DNA from: Gemmatimonadota bacterium
Lineage (GTDB): Bacteria > Gemmatimonadota > Gemmatimonadetes > Gemmatimonadales > GWC2-71-9
Assembly (NCBI GenBank): GCA_003222055.1
Contig: QHUT01000068.1
Coordinates: 25,853-89,852 of the forward strand
Direction: 5' to 3'
Length of the DNA stretch: 64,000 bases
Both the position numbers and the translations under genes were made by a program. The notes below the pieces were generated by a model. The model ran no database searches and was not told where the DNA came from. It worked only from the letters and a program-made list of their open reading frames with translations. Positions 7,698-58,722 of this stretch are shown here, in pieces (the first letter of the stretch is position 1; the number at the start of each line of letters is the position of its first letter).

Positions 7698-7770
7698 GAG
7701 TGCCTCCGGGCCCCAAGGTAGGGGGGCGTCGGCCGGGCGCGCCAGATCCCTCGCTAGATTCCCCACACCC

Positions 7771-8769: not shown

Positions 8770-9575
8770 CCCGGACGGTCGATTGGCTGCGGCGCTACGG
8801 CGCCTTGCTGCGGGCCGCGTGGCTGCAGGACCTGCAGTACCGCGCGTCCATCGTGCTGTGGCTGCTCTGGGGCGTGACCGAGCCGGCCGTGGCGCTCGGC
8901 ATCTGGTGGGCGATCGCGGCGGACGGCCCGGTGCAGGGGTATGCGCGCGCCGACTTCGCGCGCTACTTCTTCGCCCTGATGCTCGTGAACCAGCTCACCA
9001 TCGCGTGGGACTCGTGGTACCTGGACTCCTGGATCCGCGAAGGTGAGCTGAACTTCCGGCTGGCGCGACCGATTCACCCCGCGCACGAGGCGGTGGCGGA
9101 AAACCTCGCCTACAAGGCGCGTACGGCCGGCATGATTCTCGTGGTGTGGCTCATCGTCGCGGCGGCCTGGCCCGCGGTGCGGCTGCCGTTCGGGGCCGGC
9201 CGGTGGGCGCTCACCGCGGCGGCCGTGCTGCTCGCCGCGGCGCTGCGGTTCTTCATCAGCTTCGCCACGGGGCTGCTGGCGTTCTGGACCACGCGCGCCA
9301 CTGCCATCATGGAGCTGCACGCCGGGATCTCGCTGTTCCTCTCCGGACGGCTCGCGCCGCTCGCCCTGCTCCCCCCCGCCGTCGCGCGCGTGGCGGGGTT
9401 TCTCTGGTTCCCCTACATGCTGGCGTTCCCCGTGGACCTGCTCACGGGTGCGGTGCACGGCGCGGCGCTGCTGCAGGGATTCGTCGGGCAGGTCGTGTGG
9501 CTCGCGGTATGGGTGGGTGCGTATCGGCTGGCCTGGACACGTGGGTTGCGGCGCTATGGCGCGGTAGGGGGGTGA
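8766..9575 (+). CDS. ABC-2 family transporter permease
   Basis: ATGA overlap with the ATPase stop. It is a multi-TM protein opening with a LQYRASIVLWLLW-type N-terminus. Confidence 0.8.
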   Translation: MTRTVDWLRRYGALLRAAWLQDLQYRASIVLWLLWGVTEPAVALGIWWAIAADGPVQGYARADFARYFFALMLVNQLTIAWDSWYLDSWIREGELNFRLARPIHPAHEAVAENLAYKARTAGMILVVWLIVAAAWPAVRLPFGAGRWALTAAAVLLAAALRFFISFATGLLAFWTTRATAIMELHAGISLFLSGRLAPLALLPPAVARVAGFLWFPYMLAFPVDLLTGAVHGAALLQGFVGQVVWLAVWVGAYRLAWTRGLRRYGAVGG

Positions 9576-43340: not shown

Positions 43341-43976
43341 GTGAAGACAAGCGTGTACCAGAGCGTGGCGCTCCTGACGCTCTGCTCGGCCGCGTGCGGC
43401 GGCGGCTCCCGTCCGGCACCCGTCCCCGTCCCGGCGCGACTCGACCTGCGGCCGTACGGTCGTCTGGGCCTGGTCACGTTCAGCGTGGAAAACGCCAAAG
43501 GCTCGCTGCACCAGTTCGCGACCGACCGGTTCTCGGAAGAGATCCTGGCCGCACAGCCCGGCACGGAGGTGCTCGAGCTCGGCTCCGCCGACTCGCTGGT
43601 GAGGCGCGTGGGCGAGCAAGAGTTGGGCATCGCCGCGGCCCAGGAGCTGGGCAAGCAGCGTGACATCGGCGCCGTGTTCGCGGGCCACCTCAAGGTCACG
43701 AACCCGCAGGCGGGCGGCGGGCTCGCCGGCCTCGTGACGCCGCACCTCGACGCCACGGTGCGGCTGGACCTCACGGTGCGACTGCTCTCGACCCGCTCCG
43801 GCGCGACCCTGTGGCGCTCCAGTGCGTGGGCGACCGACAAGGTCGGTCATGTGGCGCTCGTGGACGGGCAGCTGTTTTTCGGGGCCAAGGACCCGAAGGA
43901 AGCGTACGGCAGGATGGTGAACCGTCTGATCGAGCTCGTCACGCAGGATCTGCGGCCCACGTGGCGACAGCCGTGA
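43341..43976 (+). CDS. Hypothetical lipoprotein
   Basis: GTG start with a lipobox (LLTLCSAAC). Its stop overlaps the msrA GTG. Confidence 0.6.
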   Translation: MKTSVYQSVALLTLCSAACGGGSRPAPVPVPARLDLRPYGRLGLVTFSVENAKGSLHQFATDRFSEEILAAQPGTEVLELGSADSLVRRVGEQELGIAAAQELGKQRDIGAVFAGHLKVTNPQAGGGLAGLVTPHLDATVRLDLTVRLLSTRSGATLWRSSAWATDKVGHVALVDGQLFFGAKDPKEAYGRMVNRLIELVTQDLRPTWRQP

Positions 43977-44590
43977 GGGCGCGTGTGCTGCTGCTGGCGG
44001 GACTCACGGCGGCGGCCGGACCGAGCGCCGCCCAGACACGCGCGTCTGCCGGTAAGGCCGACACAGCCGTGTTCGCCGGGGGTTGCTTCTGGGGCGTCGA
44101 CGCCGTGTTCCGCCATGTGCGCGGCGTGACCGGCGTCGTGTCCGGCTATTCAGGGGGCGGTGCCGCGACCGCGCGCTACGACGTCGTCAGCACGTCGACC
44201 ACGGGCCACGCCGAGTCGGTCGAGGTAGCGTTCGACCCGGCGCGGGTGTCGTACGAGCAACTGCTGCGGGTGTTCTTCACCGTGGCGCACGACCCCACCG
44301 AGCGCGATCGCCAGGGGCCGGACGAGGGCACCCAGTACCGCTCCGTCGTGTTCTACCGCACGCCCGAGCAGCTGCGAGCGGCGCGCGCCATGATCGCGGG
44401 ACTGGAGCACGACGCGGCCTACCCCCGCCCGATCGCGACGGAGGTAGTGCCGTTCGAGCGTTTCTACGCGGCGGAAGCGTATCACCAGGACTACCTGGCC
44501 CACCACCGCACCAGCCCGTACATCGTCTACTACGACCTGCCCAAGCTGAAACGGCTCGAGGAGCGGTTCCCGACCCTATACCGGCCGTAA
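43973..44590 (+). CDS. msrA: Peptide-methionine (S)-S-oxide reductase with signal peptide
   Basis: It has GGCFWGVDAVF, GHAESVEV and YHQDYL motifs. Confidence 0.9.
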   Translation: MRARVLLLAGLTAAAGPSAAQTRASAGKADTAVFAGGCFWGVDAVFRHVRGVTGVVSGYSGGGAATARYDVVSTSTTGHAESVEVAFDPARVSYEQLLRVFFTVAHDPTERDRQGPDEGTQYRSVVFYRTPEQLRAARAMIAGLEHDAAYPRPIATEVVPFERFYAAEAYHQDYLAHHRTSPYIVYYDLPKLKRLEERFPTLYRP

Positions 44591-44606
44591 CCGCCCGCGC
44601 GTCCCG

Positions 44607-45110
44607 TCAGCGTTTCTGAATGTCCCCCACGACCGTGCCGTCGGCGTGGAACCCATTCTCCCGAATGTCGATGCTGAAGGTGTCCGTGCCAAGGCCGGTC
44701 ACCCCGTTGTCGCACGCCTTCACGGTGAAGTGTGCGGTGCTCATGACGCCCTCGTCGAGGAACGGGCCGACCGCGTCGAACTCGGCTCCGTGGCTCGGCG
44801 TGGCGCAAAAACTCGAGCTCGAGCGGAACGCAGTGAACGAGCTCGCGTCCAGCATGTCCCCGCTCGCGTCCATGGCATGGAACCTCCCGTGCACGCCCGA
44901 CGCGTCGGACGTGACGTCGAAGCTGAACGTAATCACGCCACCCTCCGGGATGGTGCCCGTTCCCGATATCTCTCCGGTCTGGGGCGGCGGCGGCTGGTTC
45001 CACGCTTGCAGCTTGGGACTCAGTGGATCACGTGCATCGGTACATGCGGCGGCGAGTACCAGCAGCGCGGCGGCCGCCGCGGACGCGCCACGCGAAATGG
45101 TGGGCTTCAT
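44607..45110 (-). CDS. Secreted lipoprotein carrying only the conserved C-terminal domain (family member 3)
   Basis: It has a lipobox (LAAAC), then ITFSFDVTSDASG...FDAVG...KACDNGVTGLGTDTFSIDI...GTVVGDIQKR. Confidence 0.7.
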   Translation of the reverse strand: MKPTISRGASAAAAALLVLAAACTDARDPLSPKLQAWNQPPPPQTGEISGTGTIPEGGVITFSFDVTSDASGVHGRFHAMDASGDMLDASSFTAFRSSSSFCATPSHGAEFDAVGPFLDEGVMSTAHFTVKACDNGVTGLGTDTFSIDIRENGFHADGTVVGDIQKR

Positions 45111-45262
45111 GGAGCTCCCCTCCTGGAGCGACGGGTTCGGGAGCCCCTGCGGCAAAACGCGGACCGGCTGTCGTGTGCGCAACACCGAGCGACGCGACGT
45201 CCGGACGCGGCGCAGCCGCATCGCCCGCTGCTGCGCGGACGTGTCGTCGCGCGCGAACGGCA

Positions 45263-46801
45263 TCACACCGGATGGGCGTGGCTCGTGCGCAGCACCGTCG
45301 CGATCGTATCGGCCTCGGCGGCATGCTTGTCGGGCCGGTAGCGCACCACGCGGGCGAACCGCAGCGCGACGCCGCCGGGATACTGCGGGCTCGTCTGCAC
45401 GTCGTTGAAGGCGACCTCGACCACGAGCTCGGGACGCACGTACACCGTGTGGTCGTCACGCGACGTTTCGAGCGCGAGGAGGCGGGCCGTCTGCCACGCG
45501 AGCATCTCGTCGGTCATGCCCTTGAAGGTCTTGCCCAACATGACGAAGTCCCCCGTGTCCGGGGCCCGGGCGCCCAGGTGCAGGTTCGAGAGCCGGCCGT
45601 GACGGCGTCCATGTCCCCACTCGGCGGCGAGTACGACGAGGTCGAGCGTGTGCGCCGGCTTTACCTTGAGCCACGCCGCCCCGCGCGCGCCCGCGTCGTA
45701 GCGCGCCTCGAGCGCTTTGGCCATCAGGCCTTCCTGACCGGCCGCGATCGCCTGCTCGAGAAACCGCGTTGCCAGGGGCGGGTCTCGAGTCACGAGGCGC
45801 GGCACCCGGGCCTCGGGCGGGACGAGCTGCTCGAGCGCGGCGAATCGCCTGGTATACGGCTCGTCCAACAGGACGGCGCCGTCGGCGTACAGGACGTCGA
45901 AGAAGAACGCCGCGAGCGGCAGCTCGGCGCGTAGTCGCTCCACGTCGCGCTTCCGTCCGAAGCGGCGCATCGTCACCTGAAACGGGAAGGGCGTGCCGTC
46001 CGGCCGCAGGGCGATCGCCTCGCCGTCGAGGATGGCTTCGCGCAGGGGGAATCGCCGCACGGCTTCCACCACGTCCGGCACCGCCGCGGTCACGTCATTC
46101 AGCTGGCGCGTGAACACTCGCACCTCTGCTCCCGCCCGGTGCACCTGGATGCGGGCGCCGTCGAGCTTGTATTCGAACGCCGCTTCGCCCAACTGCGCGA
46201 GCGCGGCCGCGACGTCGTCGGCCGCCTGCGCGAGCATCGGCTGGAGCGGGCGGAACAGCTCCAGGCGAAACCGCGCCAGCCCGGCGGCGCCGTCCGTGAG
46301 CGCGGCGTGCGCCACCACACCCAGGTCGCCCGCGAGCATGGCGGCGCGCCGCACACCCTCGGGATCGAGTCCCGTCGCACGGGCCACGGCCTCGACCATC
46401 AGTCCTTCCAACGCCCCCTGACGCAGCTCGCCGATCAGCAGGCGGAACAGGAATTCCTGCTCCTCCGGAGTGCCCTGCGCGAACAGCTCACGTAACAGTC
46501 GGTCCTTCGCCGCGGCGGAGCCTTGGCCCGTGGTCCGAGCCACCCGCCCGAGCGCGGCGTCCAGCGTGGCCAGCTCGAGGGTGGGACGGTCCGACGCCCG
46601 CTCGGGCCGCGCCGCCCGGAGCGCGGCGTACCCCACGCCGATCCGTCCCTGGCGCAGCGACCCAGACAGAGCGGCGATCGCCGTCTCGATTTCGTCCGCC
46701 GCCGTCCGTTTCAGCAGGGCGGCCAGCAAGTCGATCTTCGCGCGCCGGCCGCCCGTCGCGGCGACCTGGTGGGACGTGGTGACGAGCTCGTGAAGCTTCA
46801 C
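45263..46801 (-). CDS. ATP-dependent DNA ligase (three-domain, archaeal/eukaryote-like)
   Basis: The adenylation motif is FEYKLDGARIQVH, with further NTase/OB motifs (LDGEAI, EGLMAK, WLKVKP). I prefer GTG 46801 (VKLHELVTTSHQVAATGGRRAKIDLLAALL) over ATG 46897. Confidence 0.9.
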   Translation of the reverse strand: MKLHELVTTSHQVAATGGRRAKIDLLAALLKRTAADEIETAIAALSGSLRQGRIGVGYAALRAARPERASDRPTLELATLDAALGRVARTTGQGSAAAKDRLLRELFAQGTPEEQEFLFRLLIGELRQGALEGLMVEAVARATGLDPEGVRRAAMLAGDLGVVAHAALTDGAAGLARFRLELFRPLQPMLAQAADDVAAALAQLGEAAFEYKLDGARIQVHRAGAEVRVFTRQLNDVTAAVPDVVEAVRRFPLREAILDGEAIALRPDGTPFPFQVTMRRFGRKRDVERLRAELPLAAFFFDVLYADGAVLLDEPYTRRFAALEQLVPPEARVPRLVTRDPPLATRFLEQAIAAGQEGLMAKALEARYDAGARGAAWLKVKPAHTLDLVVLAAEWGHGRRHGRLSNLHLGARAPDTGDFVMLGKTFKGMTDEMLAWQTARLLALETSRDDHTVYVRPELVVEVAFNDVQTSPQYPGGVALRFARVVRYRPDKHAAEADTIATVLRTSHAHPV

Positions 46802-46938
46802 TGCACCATGCCGAATCGCCTGTTCCGGGCGGTCATCTTGTAGATGAGCCAGATCTCGCGCACCGTCTTGTGGTGGCGCGCGAGCCAGGCGCGCCACTCG
46901 CGGCGGTTCCTGGCGTAGAAGGTTTTTCCGACTTTCAT
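46798..46938 (-). pseudogene. 46-codon remnant resembling the N-terminus of YdeI/OmdA-like proteins
   Basis: The translation is MKVGKTFYARNRREWRAWLARHHKTVREIWLIYK, followed by an unrelated tail. Its TGA overlaps the ligase GTG. It falls below the ORF-track size cutoff, and the family assignment is from memory. Confidence 0.4.
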
Positions 46939-46948
46939 TTATGGCTCC

Positions 46949-48069
46949 ATGACGACGAAAGCTATTCTACGAGCCTCCTGATCGCGGTGACGTTGGCCGT
47001 GGCCGGCTCCGCCCAGACCGCGCCGTGCATTTCGCGCCGCAGCGGGAGCGTGCCCGCTGCGTACCGCGAGACGGTCGCGCGGATGCGGGCGCTCGTGTGC
47101 GAGCGGCTCGCCCCGCGCATTCCCGGCGTGCAGGTCGCGGTGGCGATCGACGGGACGCTGGTGTGGTCGGAGGGGTTCGGGCACGCCGACGCCGCTCGCC
47201 GGCGGCCCGTCACGCGTGAGACGCAGTTCCGCATCGGCAGCGTATCGAAGCCCCTCACGGCCGCGGCGGTCGCCCTGCTGTACGAGCAGGGGAAGCTCGA
47301 TCTCGACGCGCCGGTCCAGCGGTATGTGCCGACGTTCCCCGCGAAGGGATATCCTGTCACCACGCGGCAGCTCGCGGGGCACCTGGCCGGCATCAGGCAT
47401 TACCGGGACCGGGAGTTCTTCCTGAATCGCCGGTTCGCCACGGTGCGCGACGGCCTTGCGATCTTCCAGGACGACTCGCTCCTGTTCCCGCCGGGCACGC
47501 GCTTCTCCTACTCGAGCTACGGCTGGAACCTCGTCTCGGCCGTGGTGGAGGGCGCGTCGGGCGAAGACTTCCTACCCTACGTCTCGGCGCACGTGTTTCG
47601 GCCCCTGGGGCTCACCCACACGGCGCCCGACCGGGCCGACAGCGTGATCCCGGGCCGCACGCAATTCTACGATGGCGATAGCGCCGGCGTCTATCGCGTC
47701 GCGCCGCCGGTCGACAACAGCTACAAGTGGGCCGGAGGGGGGTTCGTCTCGACGGCCGAGGATCTGGTGAAATTCGGGTCGGCCCTCGTGGCGCCGGGAT
47801 TCTTGAGAGGGGAAACGCTGGAGCTGTTGTTCACCTCGCAGCGGACCAGCGCGGGCGAGGAGACCGGCTATGGGATCGGCTGGTTCCTGAGAACCGACAG
47901 CTTGGGCCATCGCTGGGCGTTCCACGGCGGCAGCGCCGTCGGCGGCACGGCGGTGCTCGGTGTGGACCGCGACGCGCACCTGGTGGTCGCGCTGCTCACC
48001 AACCTGTCGGACGCCGCCGTAGAGCCGGCCCAGGAGATCGAGGCGGCGTTCGAGCGGCTACGCCGCTAG
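46949..48069 (+). CDS. Serine hydrolase (beta-lactamase/PBP-like), with an apparently frameshifted 5-prime end
   Basis: The SxxK motif is FRIGSVSKPLTAAAV. ATG 46949 encodes MTTKAILRAS then stops at 46979. The body frame continues LLIAVTLAVAGSAQ one nucleotide out of phase. Confidence 0.75.
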
Positions 48070-48483
48070 CAGCTTGCGCACATTCGCCAGGATGGCCTCC
48101 AGCTGACTCTCCACCTGGCGCTTCTCCCGCAGCCGGCCGCGCAGCCACGCGATGACCGACCGGGGGGCCCACACGTCCCGCACCGTCACCGCCGTGGACC
48201 CGGCAGTCTCGTCGAGCCGGAACAGCGTTTTCCAGCCGTTGCGCTCACCGCGCTCCACCATGCCGAACGCCGTGGGGGGCGCGAAGTCGACGACCTCGAA
48301 CTCGGTCACACGGTCCCCGAAGCGCGCCTTGAAGCGCACGCCTTTGCGCAGCGGCACGGGGCTCTCGACGCCGCCGCACCCGGGGAGCCACTGAGCGATG
48401 CGCGCCGGGTCGGTGAGCACGGCAAACACGCGCTCGATCGGGGCGGCGACGGGATGGATGACCGTGTGGCTGACAGGGCGCAT
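48058..48483 (-). CDS. SRPBCC (polyketide cyclase/START-like) family protein
   Basis: 141 aa. VFAVLTDPARIAQWLPG is typical of the family. Confidence 0.7.
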   Translation of the reverse strand: MRPVSHTVIHPVAAPIERVFAVLTDPARIAQWLPGCGGVESPVPLRKGVRFKARFGDRVTEFEVVDFAPPTAFGMVERGERNGWKTLFRLDETAGSTAVTVRDVWAPRSVIAWLRGRLREKRQVESQLEAILANVRKLLAA

Positions 48484-48622
48484 CGGCGCCGGTAGCGTGG
48501 CACGGCGGCGCCGTGCTGTCAACCGGGTGATCCCGGGGCTCCCCACCGTCCGTTCCTCCCGCCCCGCCTGCTTGATACTGGCTGCTGTCCGCGGCACCTT
48601 ACGTCGTCATTCGTGGGGCAGC

Positions 48623-49675: not shown

Positions 49676-50047
49676 TTAGACGCCACTCGAAGAGGGCACC
49701 TCGGTGACGCTGTCATGCCCGTTGCCGTTGCCATTCCCGTTGCCGTTGCCGTTGCCACTGGGGGATACTTTGGAGCGCCCCCCGGTCACGGCCAGCCAGC
49801 GCCGTCGCATCCCGATCTGATCGTCGAGCTGCTGGCGGAGCTTCGCCACGGTCGTGTCCACCAGGTGGATGCGCCAGTCGATGTACTGCTCCGCCTGGTC
49901 GGGGGTCCAATCCGCCGGACCCGTAAACACCAGCTCCTCTTTGGGTTCGACGTCGTGCACCAGCTGCGCTTCGTCACGCTCGCCCACCTCCATCTTGGCG
50001 AGCACATCCGTCACCTTCCGTCCCATCAGGTCCAGCCTGCGTCCCAT
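49676..50047 (-). CDS. Hypothetical small protein with a C-terminal (Gly-Asn)6 repeat
   Basis: 123 aa, divergent from the XRE gene across the AT-rich region. I recognise no motif. Confidence 0.5.
   Translation of the reverse strand: MGRRLDLMGRKVTDVLAKMEVGERDEAQLVHDVEPKEELVFTGPADWTPDQAEQYIDWRIHLVDTTVAKLRQQLDDQIGMRRRWLAVTGGRSKVSPSGNGNGNGNGNGNGHDSVTEVPSSSGV
49719..49757 (-). repeat. Hexanucleotide microsatellite (GTTGCC-like units) encoding GNGNGNGNGNGN
   Basis: The units are visible in the sequence and stay in frame. Confidence 0.85.
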
Positions 50048-50183: not shown

Positions 50184-50189
50184 GTGAGG

Positions 50190-50447
50190 ATGTCACGGTA
50201 TCGAGGCCAGAAGGTCCGCTATCGTCGCAGGGGGGTGGTGCGCTTGCGGTTGCGGCAGCTATTGGAAACGCGCCCGGTGTCGCCCTACGGGCTGGCCAAG
50301 TTCACCGGCTTGAGCTTGAACACGATCTACCGGCTCACGCGCCCCAGCGGGCGGTTCACACTCATTCGCGCCGACACGATCGAGCGGCTGTGTGGCGCGC
50401 TGCGGGTGACGCCGAACGAGCTGTTCGAGTACGAGAAGCCGTCCTAG
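50190..50447 (+). CDS. XRE (Cro/CI-type) helix-turn-helix regulator
   Basis: The HTH region is SPYGLAKFTGLSLNTIYRLTR and the tail is ERLCGALRVTPNELFEY. An alternative GTG lies at 50184. Confidence 0.8.
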   Translation: MSRYRGQKVRYRRRGVVRLRLRQLLETRPVSPYGLAKFTGLSLNTIYRLTRPSGRFTLIRADTIERLCGALRVTPNELFEYEKPS

Positions 50448-50448
50448 C

Positions 50449-52410
50449 TCAGGTGTGGTGCACCACCCCGTCCGCCACGTTGTCTTCGTGCCGCAGCGTG
50501 ACGACGGCGGTGCGCTTCCGTCCGAGGTCGACCTCCACCACCAGGTGGCTCTTGTCGCGCGCCATCCGCCAGCGGCGGGACGCCTGCGGCGCACCACCGG
50601 CCGCCGCCAGCGCGGCGGTGACCACCGCTTCCGGAGGATCGCTCACCGCCGCGAGCTCTGCGCAGGTGGCACAGCGGTGTGACTCGGCGCTCAGATCCGC
50701 GGTGCACACGCGACGGCCGCAATATCCGCATGCCGCACGATGCAGCTCGCACGTGCCGCGTCCGCAGATGGGACACGCGGCGACCTCGTCGGACGCGAAC
50801 AGCGCCGCTGGCTCCTCGGCGCAGGCAGCCCGGTGCCGGGCGCACACCAGCCGTCTCGACCGATCGGCGCGGCGCAGGTGGGGCGAGCAATGCACCTGTT
50901 CATCCACCGCGCACACCGCCTGATGCGCCGTGCACACCGACTTGCCGCAGGTGGCGCACGGCGCCACCTCGTCCACGCCCACCGGCTCGTTGGTCCCGCC
51001 CTCGCAGTACCTGAGACACGCGGCGCACAAGCGGCGGCTCCCCTTGGGGGCGTCGGCGTGGCTGCGCTGGGCGTGCCGGTTGCACACCTCCCGGCCGCAG
51101 CTGCCGCACGGCGCCAGGCACGCGGAGCACGCCGCGTGCCCGTCCTCGGCGCACGCGCCGGCGTGAGCGGTGCAGTGCTCGAGCCGGCAGGACGGGCACA
51201 CCTGCACGTGCTCGTCGCACGCCGGCTGGCCGTCCACGCGACACTCGAGCGTCCCGTGGTCGGCGCAGAAGTCCTCGCCGCATACCGAGCAGCGGTGCGA
51301 GCAGGCGTCACAGCCGCAGTGGTCGTGGCGGCAGATCACCAGCATGGCCGGCGGGCGGCCGCACTGCGGACACGCCAGCGACCAGCCGGACGCACCACTG
51401 AGCGACCGCTGCGCGGCGAACATCGCGCGGCGCCCCCGCACCGACTCGAGGTGCCATTCGGCGCGCTGCATCAGCACGGCGGCCTCCACCAGCTGCAGCG
51501 GGTGCACGACGGCCTTCACCTGGCTGCGGCGGATCTCTTCGGCGCGGCGACGCTCGGCGAGCGCCGAGACCGTCGCGATCGCCTCGGGGTTGGTTTGCTC
51601 CTTGACCACCGACTCGAAGTATCGGTCCAGCCGGCCGAGCTCGGCCGCGAGCTCCTGCTCCGCCGCTGCGCGGCGGGTGGCGACACGCTCCGCCGCCTTC
51701 TCCCGGAGATGGCTCAAGAGGAGTCGCAGCAGCTCACCGGCCTCCCGCGCCGGGACGGCCGCCGCCCCGGCGCCCGCCGGATCCGCGGGCGGGACCCGGC
51801 CGGCCTCGAGTTCGAGGAACGCTGCGGCCAGATCGGCACCGACCGGGGCGCCGGCCGACAGGTCGTACACGTCGGTCTCGACCACCGCCTCTTCCACGCC
51901 TGCTCCGGCGCGCAACACCACGCGCGCCACGAGCCGCCCCACGGGATGCACGGCCAGCCTGGTCGCACGGCGCTTGATCGTACCGTCGCGCACGGGAAGC
52001 GTCGGCTCGACGGCCTCCGGATCGCTCGACGGCGGAGCCGCGGGCGCGATCAGGCCGAGGGAGAGCCGCGCCGCCCGCGCGCGGATCGCCTCCACCACCT
52101 GTGAGACGAACGGGCTGCCGAGCACGGCGATTTCGGCGTCCGGGTCGCGCTCGAGCGCGTCGAGCGAGAACGCCACGCGCAAGCGGTCGCGGTCCCTGAA
52201 GAACGGGCGCTCGGCCGAGGGGAGCCTGAGCTCCGCGTGATCAGGGCCGAGGGCGGCCTGTTTCACGCCCGCGAGCTCACAGTAGCGCTCGAGCAGGGGC
52301 CGCAGCGCCGAGCCCGCCAGCGGGTCGGCGTCCCTCGGGGCCTGAGGCGCGGCCGCCGGTGGCTTGCGGCGGGGTTTGCGCGCCGGTCTGCGCGCCGCTG
52401 TGCGCTTCAC
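50449..52410 (-). CDS. 653-aa uncharacterised protein: basic N-terminal tail, alpha/beta plus coiled-coil region, tandem Cys/His zinc-knuckle-like array
   Basis: Its GTG at 52410 overlaps the SNF2 TGA (GTGA). The N-terminus is VKRTAARRPARKPRRKPP. Residues 347-583 hold about 38 Cys in repeated CxxC...CxxH units. The upstream 150 codons of ORF 50449..52860 overlap SNF2 and are rejected. Confidence 0.75.
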   Translation of the reverse strand: MKRTAARRPARKPRRKPPAAAPQAPRDADPLAGSALRPLLERYCELAGVKQAALGPDHAELRLPSAERPFFRDRDRLRVAFSLDALERDPDAEIAVLGSPFVSQVVEAIRARAARLSLGLIAPAAPPSSDPEAVEPTLPVRDGTIKRRATRLAVHPVGRLVARVVLRAGAGVEEAVVETDVYDLSAGAPVGADLAAAFLELEAGRVPPADPAGAGAAAVPAREAGELLRLLLSHLREKAAERVATRRAAAEQELAAELGRLDRYFESVVKEQTNPEAIATVSALAERRRAEEIRRSQVKAVVHPLQLVEAAVLMQRAEWHLESVRGRRAMFAAQRSLSGASGWSLACPQCGRPPAMLVICRHDHCGCDACSHRCSVCGEDFCADHGTLECRVDGQPACDEHVQVCPSCRLEHCTAHAGACAEDGHAACSACLAPCGSCGREVCNRHAQRSHADAPKGSRRLCAACLRYCEGGTNEPVGVDEVAPCATCGKSVCTAHQAVCAVDEQVHCSPHLRRADRSRRLVCARHRAACAEEPAALFASDEVAACPICGRGTCELHRAACGYCGRRVCTADLSAESHRCATCAELAAVSDPPEAVVTAALAAAGGAPQASRRWRMARDKSHLVVEVDLGRKRTAVVTLRHEDNVADGVVHHT

Positions 52411-54536
52411 GCGTCGGCCTCGATATCCACGAGCGCGAGGGGCAGGCGCTCGACCTGTGCTACGAGCGTGATCGCGCGGCCGGCGCTGGTCAGGCCGGTG
52501 AGCCGCACCAGGTCTCCGTACTTGGGATGATGGCCGGCCGGCTGGGCGGTCGTGACGCCACCGACCGGCTCGATCGACTCCAGCGCCTCGAGCACGTCCG
52601 TCACGTGCAAGCCGAGCTTGAGGCGCTTCGCGTCCCAGCCGGCTGCCCTGACGACCTGGCTCGTGCCGAACCCGAGGCGCAGGCGCCCGGGGACCGACAG
52701 CGTCCCGAACCGGCGCTCGAGCCGCATGGCGTTGTCGTCCGGCGCGATAAGGGAGTTGAGCGCTTCCTGCGCCTTGCCCGCCGCACTGCTCTTCTCGATG
52801 TCGGCGCCGAGCGTCGCCACCCGGCGTGCAAAGTCCGCGTCGTCTTCGGCGGCGAGCCATTCTTCGGCAAGCCGGCCTTCGAACTGCTGGGCGCCGCCGA
52901 ATTCCCCGAGGATCAGGTCCAGCTCGCCCACGACCAGCTCGAACAGCTTGATCTTCTGGTCCAGCAACTGGAGGATGTACGCCTCGATGGTCCCGGTCGC
53001 CGCCAGGTTCACGATGTGGACCTCGCGCGTCTGCCCGATGCGGTGCAGGCGGCCGATGCGCTGCTCCACCACCATCGGGTTCCAGGGCAGGTCGTAGTTC
53101 ACGAGCACGTTGCAGAACTGCAGATTGCGTCCTTCGCTGCCCGCGCGAGTGGCGATCAGCACACTGCGCGGGTCCTGGTGGAAGGCGCGGATCCGCGTAT
53201 CCCGCTCGGGCGTCGAATGAGCGCCCCAGTAGACGATGGGCGTACGGCCCAGCTGCTTGACGCGCTCTGCGATCAGCTCGATGGTCGGGCGGTGGTCGCT
53301 GAAGACCACCACGCGGTCGGGCGTTTCCTGCAGCAGTTTGGTCAGCACGTCCAGCTTGGCGTGGGTCTTGATGCGGCGCGCCCGCTGGGCCAGCTGGCGG
53401 GCGATCGTGCGGTACTCGGGGCTGATGCGCTCAGCCTCGCCCAGGTGCTCGAGCGACTCGGCGAGCGCGCGCGCGGAGGAGCACAGCCGCTGGCGCAGGT
53501 GGATGACCGCGAGCTGCAGGATTCCCTTCTTGGTGGGCCGCCGGCGCCGCTTGCCGTCTTCCACCTCTTCCTGCTCGGCCGGCTGGATGAAGCCCTCTCG
53601 GTACAGCCGTCGCAGGAACTCGGTGGTGCGCTGATACAGGTCCGCCTCGGCGCGCGTCAGCTTGACCTCGGGGTGGCGCGGCCGGCGCGGCGGCAGGTCC
53701 AGGTCGAGGGCGACGCTCGAGCGCCGCGTGCGGATCATCACCGCGTGCGTCAGGGCGCGCAGGGCTTCGGGGTCGCGCGGCTGGCGGCGGTCGCCCGAGA
53801 CGAGATGCTCGCTCTTGAACTCCTGCCAGGTGCCGAGCTGGCCGGGCCGGAGCAGCGTGATGAGGTTGTACAACTCGCGCAGGTCGTTCTGGAGCGGCGT
53901 CGCCGTGAGCAGCAGGATGAAGTCCCGCTCGATTTTCTCGATGAACTGGTAGGTCGCGCCGCGGTGGCTCTTCACCTTGTGTGCCTCGTCGACGATGACG
54001 AGATCCCAGCGGTGTCGCAGGATCTCTTCCGCGTGCCGGCGCGAGCGCGCGCGGTCGTGCGAGATGATCGCCCTGGTGATGGCAACGCGCTGCCAGTCGT
54101 CGGGCTCGGTCGGGGTCTCGAAGCGCTCGAAGAACTTCTCCTCGAGCTCGCCCTGCCACTGGCCCACGAGCGAGGCGGGCGTCAGGATCAGCACGCGGCG
54201 GGCGAGGCCGCGGATCGCCAGTTCTTTATAGATGATGCTCGCCTCGATCGTCTTGCCGAGGCCGACCTCGTCGGCGAGGATCGCGCGGCCGCCCATGTCG
54301 CGCAGCACGCGCTGGGCCACGTCGATCTGGTGGGGCAGCTCCTTGATCGCGTTGGCGTCGAGCGTGATCAGCCGGTCGAAGCCGGGGACGAGGGCGATAC
54401 GCTCCGCCTCGCGCCGCAGGTCGTACCAGGCACGATCGGCCGGCGGTTCCTTGAGCTTGTCGACGAAGAGCGTCAGGGACCGCTCGTCGACCGCCCAGGA
54501 GTCGTCGCGCAGTGGAGCGGGCTCAGGCAGCGTCAC
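52407..54536 (-). CDS. SNF2/Swi2-family ATPase (helicase-like translocase)
   Basis: It has motif I (DEVGLGKT), motif II (DEAH), LLLTATPLQNDLRELYNLITLL, and DLPWNPMVVEQRIGRLHRIGQ. The start is GTG, preceded by a GAGG-like Shine-Dalgarno sequence. Confidence 0.9.
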   Translation of the reverse strand: MTLPEPAPLRDDSWAVDERSLTLFVDKLKEPPADRAWYDLRREAERIALVPGFDRLITLDANAIKELPHQIDVAQRVLRDMGGRAILADEVGLGKTIEASIIYKELAIRGLARRVLILTPASLVGQWQGELEEKFFERFETPTEPDDWQRVAITRAIISHDRARSRRHAEEILRHRWDLVIVDEAHKVKSHRGATYQFIEKIERDFILLLTATPLQNDLRELYNLITLLRPGQLGTWQEFKSEHLVSGDRRQPRDPEALRALTHAVMIRTRRSSVALDLDLPPRRPRHPEVKLTRAEADLYQRTTEFLRRLYREGFIQPAEQEEVEDGKRRRRPTKKGILQLAVIHLRQRLCSSARALAESLEHLGEAERISPEYRTIARQLAQRARRIKTHAKLDVLTKLLQETPDRVVVFSDHRPTIELIAERVKQLGRTPIVYWGAHSTPERDTRIRAFHQDPRSVLIATRAGSEGRNLQFCNVLVNYDLPWNPMVVEQRIGRLHRIGQTREVHIVNLAATGTIEAYILQLLDQKIKLFELVVGELDLILGEFGGAQQFEGRLAEEWLAAEDDADFARRVATLGADIEKSSAAGKAQEALNSLIAPDDNAMRLERRFGTLSVPGRLRLGFGTSQVVRAAGWDAKRLKLGLHVTDVLEALESIEPVGGVTTAQPAGHHPKYGDLVRLTGLTSAGRAITLVAQVERLPLALVDIEADA

Positions 54537-54589: not shown

Positions 54590-57500
54590 ATGGCCTTCGA
54601 CCCGCTCCCGCAGCAGCGCCTTGCCATTGAAGCGCCGCTCGGCCCCGTCCTCGTGGTCGCGGGACCGGGCGCGGGAAAGACGTTCTGCCTCATCGCGCGT
54701 ATCAACCATCTCATCGCCACCCTGGGCGTGCCGCCCGAGCGCATCTGCGCCGTCACGTTCACGAATCGGGCGGCCGAGGAGATTGCCGTCCGTCTGAAGC
54801 ACACGCTGCGGGATCGTGCCGACGCCATCACGCGGGGCACGATCCACGCGTTGTGCCTCGCCCTGCTGCGGGAGCACGCCGAGGCGGCGGGCCTGCGGAG
54901 GGGGTTCGGCGTTGCCGACGAGCAGTACCAGAAGGTGATCCTGGGCCGGCTGCACGTGCCGCTCGAGCAGCGGGGATCGCTGCTGAACCGGTTCAGCCGG
55001 CATCGCGTGCAAAAGCGGGACTTCGAGCTGTCGGCCGAGGACGCGCGCCTGTTTCGCGAGTACGCCGTCTGGCTGGCGCACCGCAACATGGTGGACTTCG
55101 ACGACCTCGTCACCAAGGCCGAGCAGCTGGTGCGCACGCGGGGCGACATCGCCGACGCGATCGCCGCGCGCTGGGACTATCTCCTGGTCGACGAGTTCCA
55201 GGACGTGAACGCGGTTCAGTACGACCTCCTGAAGCGCCTCGCGGCGCCGCACGGCAACCTGTTTGCGGTCGGCGACGACGAGCAGTCGATCTTCACCTGG
55301 ACGGGGGCGGACCCGTATGTCCTGGTGCGGTTCGGCCGCGATTACGGGATCGAGCGACCCATCGTGCTGGACAAGAACTGCCGCTGCTCACGTCAGATCT
55401 TCGAGACCGCGCGGCGCGTGCTGGCGCAGAACCCCCAGCTGTTCGAGAAGCAGCTGAGCGCCGATCAGGAATCGCCGTACGACGTCGGCGCATTCACCTT
55501 CCGCGACGAAGAGGAAGAAGCCTCCTGGCTGATCGAAGACCTGCAGAGCGACCGCGCGGCGTCCGGCCTGGGATGGGGCGACTACGCAGTTCTCTACCGT
55601 AGGCACAAGCTCGGCGAGTACCTCGAGGGACGACTGCTCCGAGCGGGGATTCCCTGCCGGCTGGCGCGCGGCCGCTCGCTCGTCGAGGACGACGTCATCA
55701 AGTACGTGATCGCCGCGCTGCGGATCGTGCGCAATCCCGACGACGCCGTCGCGCTCGAGTCCTTCGCGCGCTGCGTGCTCTCGGCGCACTTCCTCCAGGA
55801 AGTGCTGGCCTCACCCCCGTTCCCCCTCTCGTCCTCACCCCCTGTCCCCCTCTCCGCTGATGCGGAGAGGGGGGACGCAGCCGACTTCCTTGCCGCCGTA
55901 CGCTCGCTGGCCCGGCGCCGGCCGGCGCAGGATCCCGACACGAAGAAGCTCTGGCGGCTCGTGTTCCAGGTCGAAAACCTCCGCGCCCTGCCTCGGTCGC
56001 ACCGCGCGTTGGCGCCGCTCGTCGATGAGATCCTCTCGCAGAGCGTCGGGCCCTACCGCAACGCGCTCGAGGAGCGGCACGACGAGCTCACCGACCCCGC
56101 CGATAGCCCCGACGCGGTGCGTCTCGCCGAGCGGCTCGCGGCGGCGATGGCGGCGGAGCAGGAGATCGTGATCGAGCCGCAGGGCGGGCTGGAGATTGCC
56201 TTGCGCGGGATGCTGATAGCGGCTGGTCTGCGTCACGTGCCAACCTCGACGACCGCCCGAACCTCCCCAACCCCCATCGCTTCCCCGCTCACCCTGTTCA
56301 AGGCGCTCCAACTGCTGCACTCGAAGGAGCTCGATACCGCGCTCGAGCGCTACGTCACCTTCGACCTGGAAACGACGGACAGCGACGTCGCCACGTGCGG
56401 TGTCGTCGAGCTCGGCGCGGCACGGGTCGTCAAGGGCGAGATCGTGGACCGGTTTCACACGCTGGTCCAGCCGTACCAGCCGATCTCGCCGCGGGCGAGC
56501 GCGATCCATGGCTACACGGATCGCGACGTGCAGAATGCGCGCTCCTTCGCCCAAGCGTGGCCCGAGTTTCGCGCTTTCGTCGGCAAGGACGTGCTCATCG
56601 CTCACAACGGCCAGCATTTCGACATTCCCGTGCTGCGCCGGCTCGCGGCCGGACAAGATGGAGTCGACGACCTCCTGTTCTACGACACGCTGCCGCTCGC
56701 TCGCTCTCTCTCCCGCGACAGCGCCAAGCTCGAGGACCTGGCCCTGCGGTTCGGGATCGACGCCGGGCGGGCCCACCACGCGTTGGACGACGCGGTCACG
56801 CTGGCCCGGGTCTACCGCGAGCTCGAGCGCCTGCGGGAAATTCGGGCGCGCAAGGCGGTGCTGGTCAACCTGCTCGACTACCTCGGATTGGCCTTGGCGC
56901 TGGAACAGGGACCGGGCAGCGGGGAGCGGGATCTGCTGTTCAAGCTCGCAAAGTTCTACACGTTGGGCCGATACAGCGATGCCCTGGCGTACTACGCGAT
57001 GGAGCGCGAGCGCACGGGTGGGGCGGCGCCTGCGGTCGACGAGGTGATCGAGCGGCTGGGCGGGCGCGCGCTCATGACACACCTCCGTGCCGAGCCCGAC
57101 CCGGCGCAGCGATATCCCGCCGCGGTGGCGCGCTTGCGGGCGCTGATGGACGGGCCCTCACCCGGTTCCTCACCCCCTGTCCCCCTCTCCTCGTCAAGGT
57201 CCTCACCCCCTGTCCCCCTCTCCACTACGTGGAGAGGGGGAACGCTCGAAGAAAGTATCGATCGCCTGCTCGAGCGCGTGGCGCTGTCCACGTCGGAGGG
57301 CATCGAGGTCGCGCCCGATCGCGTCAACCTCCTCACGCTGCACTCGACCAAGGGGCTGGAGTTCTCGCGCGTGTACATCGTGGGAGTGGAGGATTACCAG
57401 ATCCCGGGCTATCGCGAGTCGACGGAGAAGCGGCAGGCCGAGATTCAGGAGGCGCGGAGGCTTCTGTATGTGGGTATGACGCGGGCGCGGCAGCGGCTGG

Positions 57501-57610
57501 TGCTGACGCGGGTCGAGCGCCGGTTCGGGATGGAGGCGGGGGGAAGTACGTTCCTCGAGGAAATGGAGTTGGAGGTACAAGACGTGGCAGCGCCCGGAGC
57601 GAAGCCCTAG
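54590..57610 (+). CDS. UvrD/Rep-family helicase with an internal DEDDh (DnaQ-like) 3-prime-5-prime exonuclease domain
   Basis: Helicase motifs are AGPGAGKT, TFTNRAAEE, VDEFQD, GDDEQSIF, LHSTKGLEF and YVGMTRAR. The exonuclease motifs at about 56351-56824 are FDLETT, AHNGQHFDIPVL and HHALDDA. Confidence 0.9.
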   Translation: MAFDPLPQQRLAIEAPLGPVLVVAGPGAGKTFCLIARINHLIATLGVPPERICAVTFTNRAAEEIAVRLKHTLRDRADAITRGTIHALCLALLREHAEAAGLRRGFGVADEQYQKVILGRLHVPLEQRGSLLNRFSRHRVQKRDFELSAEDARLFREYAVWLAHRNMVDFDDLVTKAEQLVRTRGDIADAIAARWDYLLVDEFQDVNAVQYDLLKRLAAPHGNLFAVGDDEQSIFTWTGADPYVLVRFGRDYGIERPIVLDKNCRCSRQIFETARRVLAQNPQLFEKQLSADQESPYDVGAFTFRDEEEEASWLIEDLQSDRAASGLGWGDYAVLYRRHKLGEYLEGRLLRAGIPCRLARGRSLVEDDVIKYVIAALRIVRNPDDAVALESFARCVLSAHFLQEVLASPPFPLSSSPPVPLSADAERGDAADFLAAVRSLARRRPAQDPDTKKLWRLVFQVENLRALPRSHRALAPLVDEILSQSVGPYRNALEERHDELTDPADSPDAVRLAERLAAAMAAEQEIVIEPQGGLEIALRGMLIAAGLRHVPTSTTARTSPTPIASPLTLFKALQLLHSKELDTALERYVTFDLETTDSDVATCGVVELGAARVVKGEIVDRFHTLVQPYQPISPRASAIHGYTDRDVQNARSFAQAWPEFRAFVGKDVLIAHNGQHFDIPVLRRLAAGQDGVDDLLFYDTLPLARSLSRDSAKLEDLALRFGIDAGRAHHALDDAVTLARVYRELERLREIRARKAVLVNLLDYLGLALALEQGPGSGERDLLFKLAKFYTLGRYSDALAYYAMERERTGGAAPAVDEVIERLGGRALMTHLRAEPDPAQRYPAAVARLRALMDGPSPGSSPPVPLSSSRSSPPVPLSTTWRGGTLEESIDRLLERVALSTSEGIEVAPDRVNLLTLHSTKGLEFSRVYIVGVEDYQIPGYRESTEKRQAEIQEARRLLYVGMTRARQRLVLTRVERRFGMEAGGSTFLEEMELEVQDVAAPGAKP
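55809..55876 (+). repeat. Intragenic palindromic repeat element, copy A
   Basis: A degenerate unit (55809-55830) is followed by the perfect 23-mer CCTCACCCCCTGTCCCCCTCTCC (55833-55855). Then come an 8-nt loop and GGAGAGGGGGG. It is translated in frame as SPPFPLSSSPPVPLSADAERGD. Confidence 0.85.
57168..57241 (+). repeat. Intragenic palindromic repeat element, copy B
   Basis: The same 23-mer occurs twice (57168-57190 and 57201-57223). Then come a 7-nt loop and GGAGAGGGGGA. It is translated in frame as SSPPVPLSSSRSSPPVPLSTTWRGG. Confidence 0.85.
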
Positions 57611-58116
57611 TCCTTCTTCCAGGCGCCGAGCAGGCGTCGCAACAGAACGAGCTGGCCCAGGTGGTACGAGTTGTGGTCGGCGAGCACCAGCGCTTCACGC
57701 AGCACGGTTTGTCCGGTGCCGTGGGGAATGCGGGCAAACAGGTCGGTCTTCGGGTCGGCCACGAGGCGCTGCATGGCGCGCAGGTCGCGCTCCACCTGGG
57801 CCACGCTCGCGTCCCAGGCGGCGGCCTCTGGCGGGGCGTCGTGCTCGGGCCAGTAGCCCGCCGGCCACTCCGGAGAAACGTGCTCCTCGCTCTTCGTGAA
57901 CTCGACGATGTCCCACTGCGAGATGCGGACGTGCTCGAGCAGGCGCCACGGCGTAAAGGGCTGCCCGGCGGGTCTCGTGCCCCGGAGCGCGCCCGGCCAA
58001 TCGGCGAGCGCGTCCCGGAAGGTGACGTGGGCGTGACCGCCGCGCAGCAGCTCGAGCACGTGGTCGCGGACGGCGCCACGTGGATCGGTGCGCCGCGGCT
58101 TGCGTTTGACGGGCAT
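57607..58116 (-). CDS. DinB-fold (DinB_2-like) protein
   Basis: It has His-containing helices (HVLELLRGGHAHV and ADHNSYHLGQLVLLRR). GGAGG lies upstream of ATG 58116. Confidence 0.75.
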   Translation of the reverse strand: MPVKRKPRRTDPRGAVRDHVLELLRGGHAHVTFRDALADWPGALRGTRPAGQPFTPWRLLEHVRISQWDIVEFTKSEEHVSPEWPAGYWPEHDAPPEAAAWDASVAQVERDLRAMQRLVADPKTDLFARIPHGTGQTVLREALVLADHNSYHLGQLVLLRRLLGAWKKD

Positions 58117-58165
58117 GCAAGGCCTCCTGGGCTTCTGGCGCAGCCTTGAAGTTACCACCCACCGT

Positions 58166-58192
58166 GATCCCCGGGCTGGCGCCCGGGGTCAG
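58166..58192 (-). repeat. REP-like palindromic element, copy 3 (inverted orientation)
   Basis: CCCCGGGC-TGGC-GCCCGGGG, between the DinB start and the ogt stop. Confidence 0.75.
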
Positions 58193-58203
58193 TTGGGTCC
58201 GGT

Positions 58204-58722
58204 TCAGGCCCTTCCCAGCATCAGCAGCACGCCCTCGTGCTCGAGCAGCCAGCGCTTTCGATCGAGGCCGCCGCCGAAGCCCGTCAACTCCCCGCGCGCG
58301 CCGACCACCCGGTGGCAGGGAACGATGATAGGGATGGGATTCTTGCCGTTGGCGGCGCCCACGGCGCGCGTCGCGTGCGGGTCGCCGAGCCGCAGCGCCA
58401 GCTGGCCGTAGCTGGTGGTGGCGCCATAGGGAATGGTGCGCAGCAGGTCCCAGACGCGTCGCTCGAATGCCGAGCCGGCGGCGTCGAGCGGCAGGTCGAA
58501 CGTCGTGCGAGTCCGATCGAAATACTCGGTCAATTGCCGGCGGACGCGCGCCAGCAACGCGCCGGCGGGACCGCGGCCATCGTCTTCCACCCACCCCGGC
58601 TGCTCCTCGGGTGCAGCACGGTTGCGGTGGACCGGAAAGAACACTCCCTTTAGGGCGGTGTCCGAGGCCGCGAGGACGAGTTCGCCAACGGGACTGGGGA
58701 AGCGCGTGAACGTGATGGGCAT
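58204..58722 (-). CDS. ogt: Methylated-DNA-protein-cysteine methyltransferase
   Basis: The active site is IPIIVPCHRVVG, with the preceding YGQLA and NGKNP motifs. Confidence 0.9.
   Translation of the reverse strand: MPITFTRFPSPVGELVLAASDTALKGVFFPVHRNRAAPEEQPGWVEDDGRGPAGALLARVRRQLTEYFDRTRTTFDLPLDAAGSAFERRVWDLLRTIPYGATTSYGQLALRLGDPHATRAVGAANGKNPIPIIVPCHRVVGARGELTGFGGGLDRKRWLLEHEGVLLMLGRA

Follow-up and report, generated by a model that had tools for sequence, protein, structure and literature searches.

RapA (HepA) is the Swi2/Snf2 ATPase that associates with RNA polymerase in E. coli; it binds the polymerase and brings about its ATP-dependent release from DNA, and its N-terminal tandem Tudor-like domain autoinhibits the ATPase and contacts the β′ zinc-binding domain. 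SWIM is the zinc module usually associated with bacterial SNF2 proteins, and RING, PHD, AN1 and B-box are closed zinc modules in which two sites are cross-braced. In eukaryotes, TTF2/lodestar has zinc fingers together with an SNF2 core that removes RNA polymerase II. Here we analyze a gene found in a 64,000-nucleotide stretch of DNA from a Gemmatimonadota bacterium (the window; GenBank assembly GCA_003222055.1, contig QHUT01000068.1, positions 25,853 to 89,852 of the forward strand). The gene (50449..52410, minus strand) lies directly downstream of an SNF2 gene and encodes a 653-amino-acid (aa) accessory protein made up of a front half that resembles the spacer and C-terminal domain (CTD) of RapA, an array of Cys and His residues, and a small C-terminal domain. 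An earlier reading made from the letters of the window alone (the sequence-only reading) had singled out the array and its coupling to SNF2.

When we compared the locus with described systems, we found that the SNF2 core corresponds to RapA 121-669 and that the front half of the array protein corresponds to the RapA spacer and CTD (structures 6BOG, 8SPG and 8T0L). In contrast to RapA, the window system is split over two polypeptides, its SNF2 protein has an extra 150 C-terminal residues, and its second protein ends in two parts that RapA lacks, namely a metal array of 237 aa and a small domain of beta strands. The array and AN1 (PF01428) have the local motif C-x(1-2)-C-G-x2-F-C-x2-H in common and, it appears, an arrangement in which the knuckle and the CxxH pair four residues later serve different metal sites; however, AN1 is a closed, two-site module of ~40 residues that ends in H-x-C, whereas the interlock in the array would run up to ~26 units. 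TTF2/lodestar likewise combines an SNF2 motor with tandem zinc modules, but its zinc fingers are of an unrelated type, it is a single eukaryotic polypeptide, and homology is expected in the SNF2 core only. In the DISARM proteins DrmA/DrmB and in MrfA/YprA, a zinc-binding accessory module of the helicase comes from an adjacent gene and is assembled in trans (PMC12458937); however, that helicase is a YprA-like superfamily 2 (SF2) enzyme rather than SNF2, its zinc module is a single four-Cys DUF1998 site, and we detected no homology with the window proteins.

We consider that the array is a structural, interlocked, most likely zinc-binding repeat and that the protein bearing it is the accessory subunit of a RapA-group SNF2 motor in split form, and we put the probability of this reading at roughly 60%. 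In each unit, a hairpin turn would present the CxxC knuckle and a short helical turn the CxxH pair, and the sites would interlock like the two-site cross-brace of AN1, extended along the chain. The result would be a metal-stapled and probably rigid module with a length that depends on how many units it has. The array would then be a C-terminal extension of a RapA spacer/CTD-like protein that assembles with the SNF2 protein as a two-subunit RapA-group motor, and, rather than offering a surface for nucleic acid, it may serve as an arm or adaptor that holds either the small C-terminal domain or a partner in place on the substrate of the motor. The substrate would most plausibly be a stalled protein-nucleic acid complex, for example RNA polymerase on DNA, in a genome-maintenance setting. 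The zinc knuckle, the cross-brace and the RapA-group motor are all known kinds; what would be new is their combination and the repeat itself.

The Cys/His repeat and its proposed ligand pairing

The array occupies aa 347-583 (50662..51372, minus strand), and translation of this strand returned exactly the 237 residues with 38 Cys and 16 His that the sequence-only reading had reported. Among all stop-free segments of 237 aa in the six frames of the 64 kb (n = 23,442), the mean is 2.3 Cys and the Cys-richest segment outside the array gene has 17, as compared to 38 in the array; the pattern C-x2-[CD]-x4-C-x2-[HC] occurs 8 times in the array frame and 0 times elsewhere in the 64 kb. The Cys pattern is thus far beyond chance and is no composition artefact of a 70% GC genome. 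The same 653-aa protein is called in a public collection (P0001), and we found 404 homologues, all unnamed or hypothetical and mostly from Gemmatimonadota metagenome bins. In the best 120 homologues, each of the 38 array Cys is at least 95% conserved (114-120 of 120) and 10 array His are invariant. Nine of the array Cys codons differ synonymously (TGC/TGT) from those of one homologue, and the ratio of nonsynonymous to synonymous substitution rates (dN/dS) is 0.18-0.20 in the array and 0.18-0.26 across the whole gene. These comparisons indicate that the array gene is real, translated and under purifying selection and that its ligand pattern is conserved, which bears out the frame on which the earlier claim depended.

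The repeat period is 15 residues, C-x2-(C/D)-x4-C-x2-(H/C)-x3, and nine strict units start at aa 374, 390, 405, 420, 435, 485, 500, 546 and 561. Five regular units follow one another without a break at aa 374-449 (51064..51291, minus strand; CSVCGEDFCADH, CRVDGQPACDEH, CPSCRLEHCTAH, CAEDGHAACSAC and CGSCGREVCNRH), where the predicted local distance difference test (pLDDT) score is 96-98. The first module, aa 347-373, is irregular (C347-x2-C350-x9-C360-x3-H364-x2-C367-x2-C370) and is kept in every member of the family. Together with degenerate units, these make the earlier count of 9-10 modules a fair one; the description of the unit as a repeated treble-clef or zinc-ribbon-like element also holds, as CxxC(G) knuckles followed by a CxxH turn are present, with the period now refined to 15. 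Asp or Glu stands for Cys at conserved array positions, and there is a recurring unit variant with Asp in place of the second knuckle Cys (for example CRVDGQPACDEH and CAVDEQVHCSPH), in which D393 and D503 are invariant.

Array length ranges from 109 to 398 residues across the family, with about four ligands per 15 residues, and when we checked the lengths modulo 15 we found that they vary by roughly 60-residue blocks. In an alignment of 20 sequences, a 61-residue, three-site module (aa 485-545; 50776..50958, minus strand) is present in a second copy, as a 61-aa insert, in 14 of the 20, and many Gemmatimonadota homologues have this second copy. At the upper end of the range, the 398-residue array of P0236 contains 85 Cys and 24 His, and 22 of its units are strict and in register. 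The array of the window protein has a net charge of –3, and those of the homologues examined range from –18 to +14.

To determine which ligands may share a metal, we used the natural co-loss of ligands among homologues. In P0249 and P0256, the knuckle CTVC has become EHLG or DHIG and the Cys of the CxxH pair in the next unit is also gone (CQEH has become LPAH or MPSH). In P0247, a knuckle has become PEDD and the CxxH pair of the next unit VQAP, and in the homologue from locus L037 a knuckle has become VGDP and the pair of the next unit ALED. These are three independent co-loss events at three different array positions, and in each the intervening pairs are intact. The simplest reading is that the knuckle of unit u binds a metal jointly with the CxxH pair of unit u+1; a metal shared in this way would cause successive sites to interlock.

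Applied to the window protein, the interlocking rule gives 13 predicted tetrahedral metal sites. Only one of the 38 Cys is left over, and the other ligands are nine of the invariant His along with four conserved acidic residues, D393, D503, E533 and D572. Predicted sites 1-4 are C347/C350/C360/H364, C367/C370/C382/H385, C374/C377/C398/H401 and C390/D393/C413/H416; sites 5-7 are C405/C408/C428/C431, C420/(E422 or D423)/C443/H446 and C435/C438/C462/C465; sites 8-10 are C469/(acidic residue)/C493/H496, C485/C488/C508/H511 and C500/D503/C523/H526; and sites 11-13 are C530/E533/C554/H557, C546/C549/C569/D572 and C561/C564/C580/C583. Only three of them are all-Cys, while most include His or Asp/Glu. 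The rule also explains the otherwise orphan C469 and C530 and the terminal C580-x2-C583, and the 61-residue insert keeps the chain of interlocked sites continuous. We infer that the metal is zinc. Three other pairings were tried and set aside: one metal per unit, a CxxH pair that shares its metal with the next knuckle, and i with i+2 each leave the three co-losses and the orphan Cys469, Cys530, Cys580 and Cys583 unexplained.

We found no match to the array protein at threshold among the Pfam, NCBIfam and PADLOC models or in a sequence search of the PDB, and PDB searches with full-length and N-terminal sequence profiles also gave no match, in agreement with the earlier statement that the array fits no named family. 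The sole family-level signal is to zf-AN1 (PF01428), which scores 17.1 bits (E 0.0059) on a 73-aa fragment and 10.2 on the whole array, below its gathering threshold of 27.9; here CSVCGEDFCADHG falls on profile positions 16-30 (CxCGxxFCxxH), the interlocked core of the AN1 finger. The AN1 core C-x1-2-C-x4-C-x2-H occurs 5 times in the array, whereas a regular expression for the full AN1 pattern, C-x2-C-x9-12-C-x1-2-C-x4-C-x2-H-x5-H-x-C, has 0 matches there. An AN1-like cross-brace logic continued along the chain would account for this weak match.

Other metal-binding motifs were searched for in the same way. The SWIM zinc finger (C-x-C-xn-C-x-H) has 0 matches and its Pfam model (PF04434) gave no match, the four-fold DnaJ-type repeat C-x2-C-x-G-x-G has 0 matches in the array, and the CXXC-family pattern is absent from the array. 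A search of phage genomes by tblastn with the array as query was negative, and we found no description in the literature of the array family or of an open-ended interlocked zinc array. A Foldseek search of viral models (BFVD) returned uncharacterised Cys-rich proteins of giant viruses and phages over ~300 columns (E 1e-6 to 1e-4), among them A0A3G4ZUD0 (Edafosvirus) and A0A6J5N7T0 (uncultured phage), in which similar Cys-rich arrays are possible.

The front half, the SNF2 partner and their likeness to RapA

When we predicted the structure of the array protein with AlphaFold2 (AF2) from a 60-sequence alignment that included distant homologues, the mean pLDDT was 91.2 and the predicted template modelling score 0.67, with most of the array at 93-98. 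The array units, for which the sequence-only reading had called for a structure prediction, are thus confidently modelled: each consists of a knuckle, a 3-residue strand, one helical turn at CxxH and another 3-residue strand. This model supersedes one from a shallow alignment (20 sequences of 71-89% identity), which had a mean pLDDT of 57.7 and no significant Foldseek match. Foldseek against the PDB gave four matches below E 0.001, all of them E. coli RapA (8t0l, 8spg, 8so8 and 6bog), with E ~1e-5, probability 1.00 and ~315 aligned columns; the next match has E 0.2.

Profile alignment with hhalign places aa 31-264 colinear with RapA 710-924, with LRVAFSLDALERDPDAEIAVLGSPF aligned to a 25-residue RapA segment and AELGRLDRY to AELSRLEAL, and a more diverse N-terminal profile again led to RapA 711-790 (E 0.0055). 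Within this region, an alpha/beta domain at aa 31-121 (52048..52320, minus strand) corresponds to the RapA spacer at 710-790 (hhalign E 0.0055-0.021; Foldseek E 1e-5). It is followed by a RapA CTD-like region at aa 122-340 (51391..52047, minus strand), which has an AF2 pLDDT above 90, matches RapA by Foldseek and is aligned by hhalign as far as RapA 924; the model shows an antiparallel sheet whose last strands are preceded by an insertion of two long helices (aa 224-271 and 275-295). The RapA spacer has also been described as an inactive restriction-endonuclease-like domain, and the fold of the front half matches the published account of the post-helicase domains in RapA and BrxHII (PMC12839542). 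The predicted fold and the profile alignments indicate homology between the N-terminal 340 residues and the RapA spacer and CTD.

The two ends of the protein lie outside this likeness. The N-terminal tail (aa 1-28, KRTAARRPARKPRRKPP...; 52327..52410, minus strand) is basic and predicted to be disordered (pLDDT <50). The sequence-only reading was right about its presence, but the tail is confined to the Gemmatimonadota clade and is short or absent in distant homologues, and the argument for nucleic-acid binding that was drawn from it is weak because the array itself is near charge-neutral. At the other end, AF2 predicts C-terminal helices and a four-stranded beta domain (aa 584-653; 50452..50661, minus strand), in which Trp614 is invariant in alignments of the whole family; a comparison of this domain with the RapA N-terminal domain showed no similarity (E 0.45). 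The array protein has no stretch hydrophobic enough for a transmembrane helix, as the earlier reading had stated, and its top Kyte-Doolittle 19-mer average is 1.2.

The partner is a 709-aa SNF2 ATPase of the RapA group (52407..54536, minus strand) with Pfam SNF2-rel_dom and Helicase_C domains. Its best sequence relatives in the PDB are SSO1653 and RapA, BLASTP gives 36-37% identity with RapA for each of its two ATPase lobes, and its family profile aligns aa 33-558 to RapA 121-669 (hhalign E 1.4e-41). The two adjacent genes thereby cover RapA 121-968 colinearly, with the break after the ATPase core, in the spacer region at RapA 670-710. The window therefore has a RapA-group SNF2 core and also a spacer and CTD, but these are on the next polypeptide; since the front half of the array protein corresponds to the RapA spacer/CTD and the upstream SNF2 to RapA 121-669, the operon would encode a split RapA-like motor. 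The SNF2 protein scores 198.3 bits with the NCBIfam RapA equivalog NF003426, as compared to a cut-off of 576, and it has no RapA C-terminal domain of its own. It also has no counterpart of the N-terminal Tudor-like domain of RapA, as the alignment begins at RapA 121/SNF2 33 and too few residues precede it. Beyond the region aligned with RapA, the SNF2 protein continues for ~150 residues (aa 559-709; 52407-52860, minus strand) in a Gemmatimonadota extension with no family match; the partners in other phyla are mostly 588-643 aa long and are without this extension.

The two genes overlap by four nucleotides, GTGA (52407..52410, minus strand), so that the stop codon of SNF2 lies within the beginning of the array gene, which starts with the GTG at 52410; a GAGG lies 9 nucleotides upstream of this start, and the array gene ends in a stop codon at 50449-50451. 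The same 4-nucleotide overlap is present in loci L001, L002, L003, L076 and L077. This arrangement suggests that translation of the SNF2 and array genes is coupled.

Distribution and neighbouring genes

Only 350 representatives at 50% identity came out of an exhaustive profile search, and they include full-length distant members with the same architecture. Searches with other settings were narrower: a profile from a mixed alignment returned close Gemmatimonadota only, and another alignment returned five proteins, the word index being swamped by Cys-rich candidates. The SNF2/array pair is found in Gemmatimonadota, Chloroflexota, Planctomycetota and Armatimonadota. In Gemmatimonadota, SNF2 is directly upstream in all loci examined, with the 4-nucleotide overlap alike. 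It is also directly upstream in Anaerolineae, Ca. Amarolinea and Ca. Zipacnadia (Armatimonadota; L005), where it is 41-44% identical to the window SNF2, and in two more divergent loci, while in a Planctomycetota bin the SNF2 and array genes are separated by a single additional gene. The coupling to SNF2 that the sequence-only reading saw in one genome is thus conserved in four phyla.

In some loci, the SNF2 gene is extended or has further companions. In L074 (5306-7984, plus strand), a Ser/Thr protein kinase is fused to the SNF2 N-terminus before the array gene and two more kinase genes are nearby. In L071 (1388-7742), from an unidentified low-GC bacterium, an IetA-like (PADLOC) AAA ATPase, SNF2, the array protein, DUF4236, DUF1257 and DUF2997 follow one another. 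In L077 (1026-7004, plus strand), a 1992-aa fusion protein contains an RNase H-like exonuclease (aa 330-509), a superfamily 1 (SF1) helicase (753-976) and the SNF2 core (1344-1773), and its gene shares its last 4 nucleotides with the array gene that follows (7001-9082); the neighbours in this locus are defence-like (Nhi/AbiO-like helicase, NERD, MazG, Fic and SNase).

The window gene transcribed divergently from the pair (54590..57610, plus strand) encodes, according to Pfam, a 1006-aa helicase of the UvrD family that contains a DEDDh exonuclease within it, and a UvrD-exonuclease gene is also close by in L002 and L003. The L077 fusion suggests that a helicase-exonuclease function and the SNF2 pair work together, and it is possible, judging from these gene arrangements, that the UvrD-exonuclease is a functional partner of the pair; the L077 helicase is of SF1B type, and its exonuclease/helicase pair is different from the UvrD-DEDDh of the window. 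Within the UvrD-exonuclease gene there is a 22-nucleotide C-rich repeat (CCTCACCCCCTGTCCCCCTCTC) in four copies that form two tandem pairs (55809-55854 and 57168-57222, plus strand) and that occur nowhere else in the window. The repeat is in frame, and the SSPPVPLS-type peptides that it encodes flank the exonuclease-containing segment. In the L002 homologue, the first pair is missing and there are three copies at the second site, so that copy number varies between genomes.

The wider surroundings are rich in genome-maintenance genes (43811-48597 and 57607-58722 in the window): the methionine sulfoxide reductase MsrA (43811-44590), an ATP-dependent DNA ligase (45263-46897, minus strand), a DinB-family protein (57607-58158, minus strand) and the O6-methylguanine-DNA methyltransferase Ogt (58204-58722, minus strand). 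Locus L001 is arranged differently, with Ada and Ogt nearby and Ogt 3 kb from the pair. In the Gemmatimonadota loci L002 (11128-11442) and L003 (12205-12519), the array gene overlaps at its end with a small gene for an Smr-domain protein, and an AlkZ-like gene is present a few genes further on. On the downstream side of the array gene, the window contains a convergent gene for an 87-aa Cro/C1-type helix-turn-helix (HTH) protein (50184-50447, plus strand; PF13443, E 5e-12) and a 123-aa open reading frame (49676-50047, minus strand) with no family match and a Gly-Asn repeat run in its C-terminal part.

In Chloroflexota (L006-L052), a radical SAM gene that is uncharacterised and only weakly similar to PflA/NrdG activases is directly downstream of the array gene in 55 fetched loci, and XerD is upstream on the other strand in 35 loci (for example, L017, 9830-10924, plus strand, and 6832-7746, minus strand). 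Radical SAM and XerD are also the flanking genes in Caldilineaceae. Neither radical SAM nor XerD has a counterpart in the window.

Weighing the role of the array

Several observations weigh against the array being a structural zinc repeat on a split RapA-group motor. The pairing rule is based on three natural variants and sequence logic. The sequence similarity of the front half to RapA is weak (pairwise E 0.005-0.02, with nothing found by the PDB profile search), and the near-neutral charge of the array means that direct nucleic-acid binding is not indicated. Array genes of Caldilineaceae have no SNF2 within 8 kb, and two divergent members sit among defence-type genes. RapA residues L216, V217, L220 and L229 form a hydrophobic patch for the flap-tip helix of RNA polymerase (PMC8501970), and in the window SNF2 these positions are Q, G, E and T. 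As this patch is not conserved and the RapA N-terminal domain is missing, association with RNA polymerase cannot be assumed.

The defence-type surroundings raise the question of whether the pair belongs to an anti-phage or conflict system. In such a system, foreign nucleic acid would be sensed or processed by three players: the RapA/BrxHII-like SNF2, its zinc-rich partner and the SF1 helicase-exonuclease encoded next to them. RapA-like helicases belong to BREX type 3, DISARM and ARMADA (PMC12839542, PMC12458937), zinc-binding modules are enriched in defence helicases (PMC12458937), and the best PADLOC scores of the window SNF2 are to the DrmD, BrxHI/II and HmaA models. In addition, distant members adjoin a PADLOC PDC-M26A candidate or Nhi/AbiO matches as well as NERD, MazG, Fic and SNase genes, and the SNF2 fusions to a kinase or to an exonuclease and SF1 helicase, like the IetA-like ATPase beside SNF2 in L071, would fit such a role. 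However, all of these models score far below their curated cut-offs (DrmD, NF038318/NF038317, 237 and 194 bits as compared to 950 and 610), the PADLOC matches to BrxHI/II reflect generic SNF2 similarity, and there are no BREX genes within 10 kb on either side. No methyltransferase, PglZ, BrxC, DrmA/B/C or YprA gene is adjacent; instead of DISARM components, the neighbours are the UvrD-exonuclease, HTH, DinB, Ogt and ligase genes. The Gemmatimonadota pair is 64-89% identical among hundreds of assemblies and has housekeeping and DNA-repair neighbours, and in most Chloroflexota species the array gene lies between XerD and the radical SAM gene, a setting that fits a core gene rather than a mobile island. 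We therefore regard a defence role for the pair as unlikely.

A redox or metal switch is also doubtful. Zinc-thiolate switches are known, with Hsp33 and RsrA as examples, and in such a switch the interlocked thiolate sites would lose zinc on oxidation or metal limitation, the rod would unfold cooperatively, and the SNF2 motor would be toggled. The 38 conserved thiols form an interlocked chain that would be expected to unfold cooperatively, and a methionine sulfoxide reductase gene is in the neighbourhood of the pair in the window and in L002 and L003; yet this gene is several genes away and is absent from L001, and variation in array length between 109 and 398 aa is not required by a simple switch. 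A switch of this kind is compatible with the structural explanation and does not exclude it.

The sequence-only reading had left open an iron-sulfur alternative, and iron survives only as an improbable rival, in which rubredoxin-type Fe(Cys)4 sites or Fe-S clusters would have a role in electron transfer or sensing. Six of the array knuckles are of the rubredoxin-type CxxCG form, and a radical SAM gene follows the Chloroflexota homologues. In contrast, the ferredoxin motif C-x2-C-x2-C-x3-C(P) has 0 matches and the Fer4 Pfam model gives none, the scarcity of all-Cys sites among those predicted does not favour iron, and the repeat is strictly periodic, variable in number and attached to a nucleic-acid motor; the window, moreover, has no radical SAM gene. 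A metallothionein-like store or buffer of metal is more improbable still: the Cys content is 16% and there is a weak Foldseek match (E 0.009) to a phage protein labelled as a prokaryotic metallothionein, but the ligand spacing is fixed, regular secondary structure is confidently predicted, the array is covalently joined to RapA-like domains and coupled to SNF2, and no metallothionein model matches. On motif grounds, then, both the Fe-S and the metallothionein readings are unlikely.

If the structural reading of the array is extended, the family may tentatively be regarded as an undescribed class of repeat protein: an open-ended interlocked zinc rod with one metal per 15 residues and up to ~26 units, tuned in length in ~60-residue blocks, that would act as the ruler or arm of a second, split RapA-type motor, widespread in phyla of soil and wastewater and possibly working with the UvrD-exonuclease, on stalled transcription or damaged DNA. 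We consider this wider proposal possible but clearly less probable than the structural reading itself.

If true, an open-ended chain with shared metal sites would be a new route to a rigid protein element of adjustable length, which makes the array attractive for structural study and for protein design. Our analysis also indicates that at least four phyla, whose RapA biology is unstudied, have the RapA architecture divided over two genes. The poorly understood C-terminal domain of RapA is there the anchor for a large accessory module, which gives a handle on its role. The recurring link to an SF1 helicase and exonuclease, as a neighbour in the window and as a fusion elsewhere, points to an uncharacterised genome-maintenance or conflict machine.

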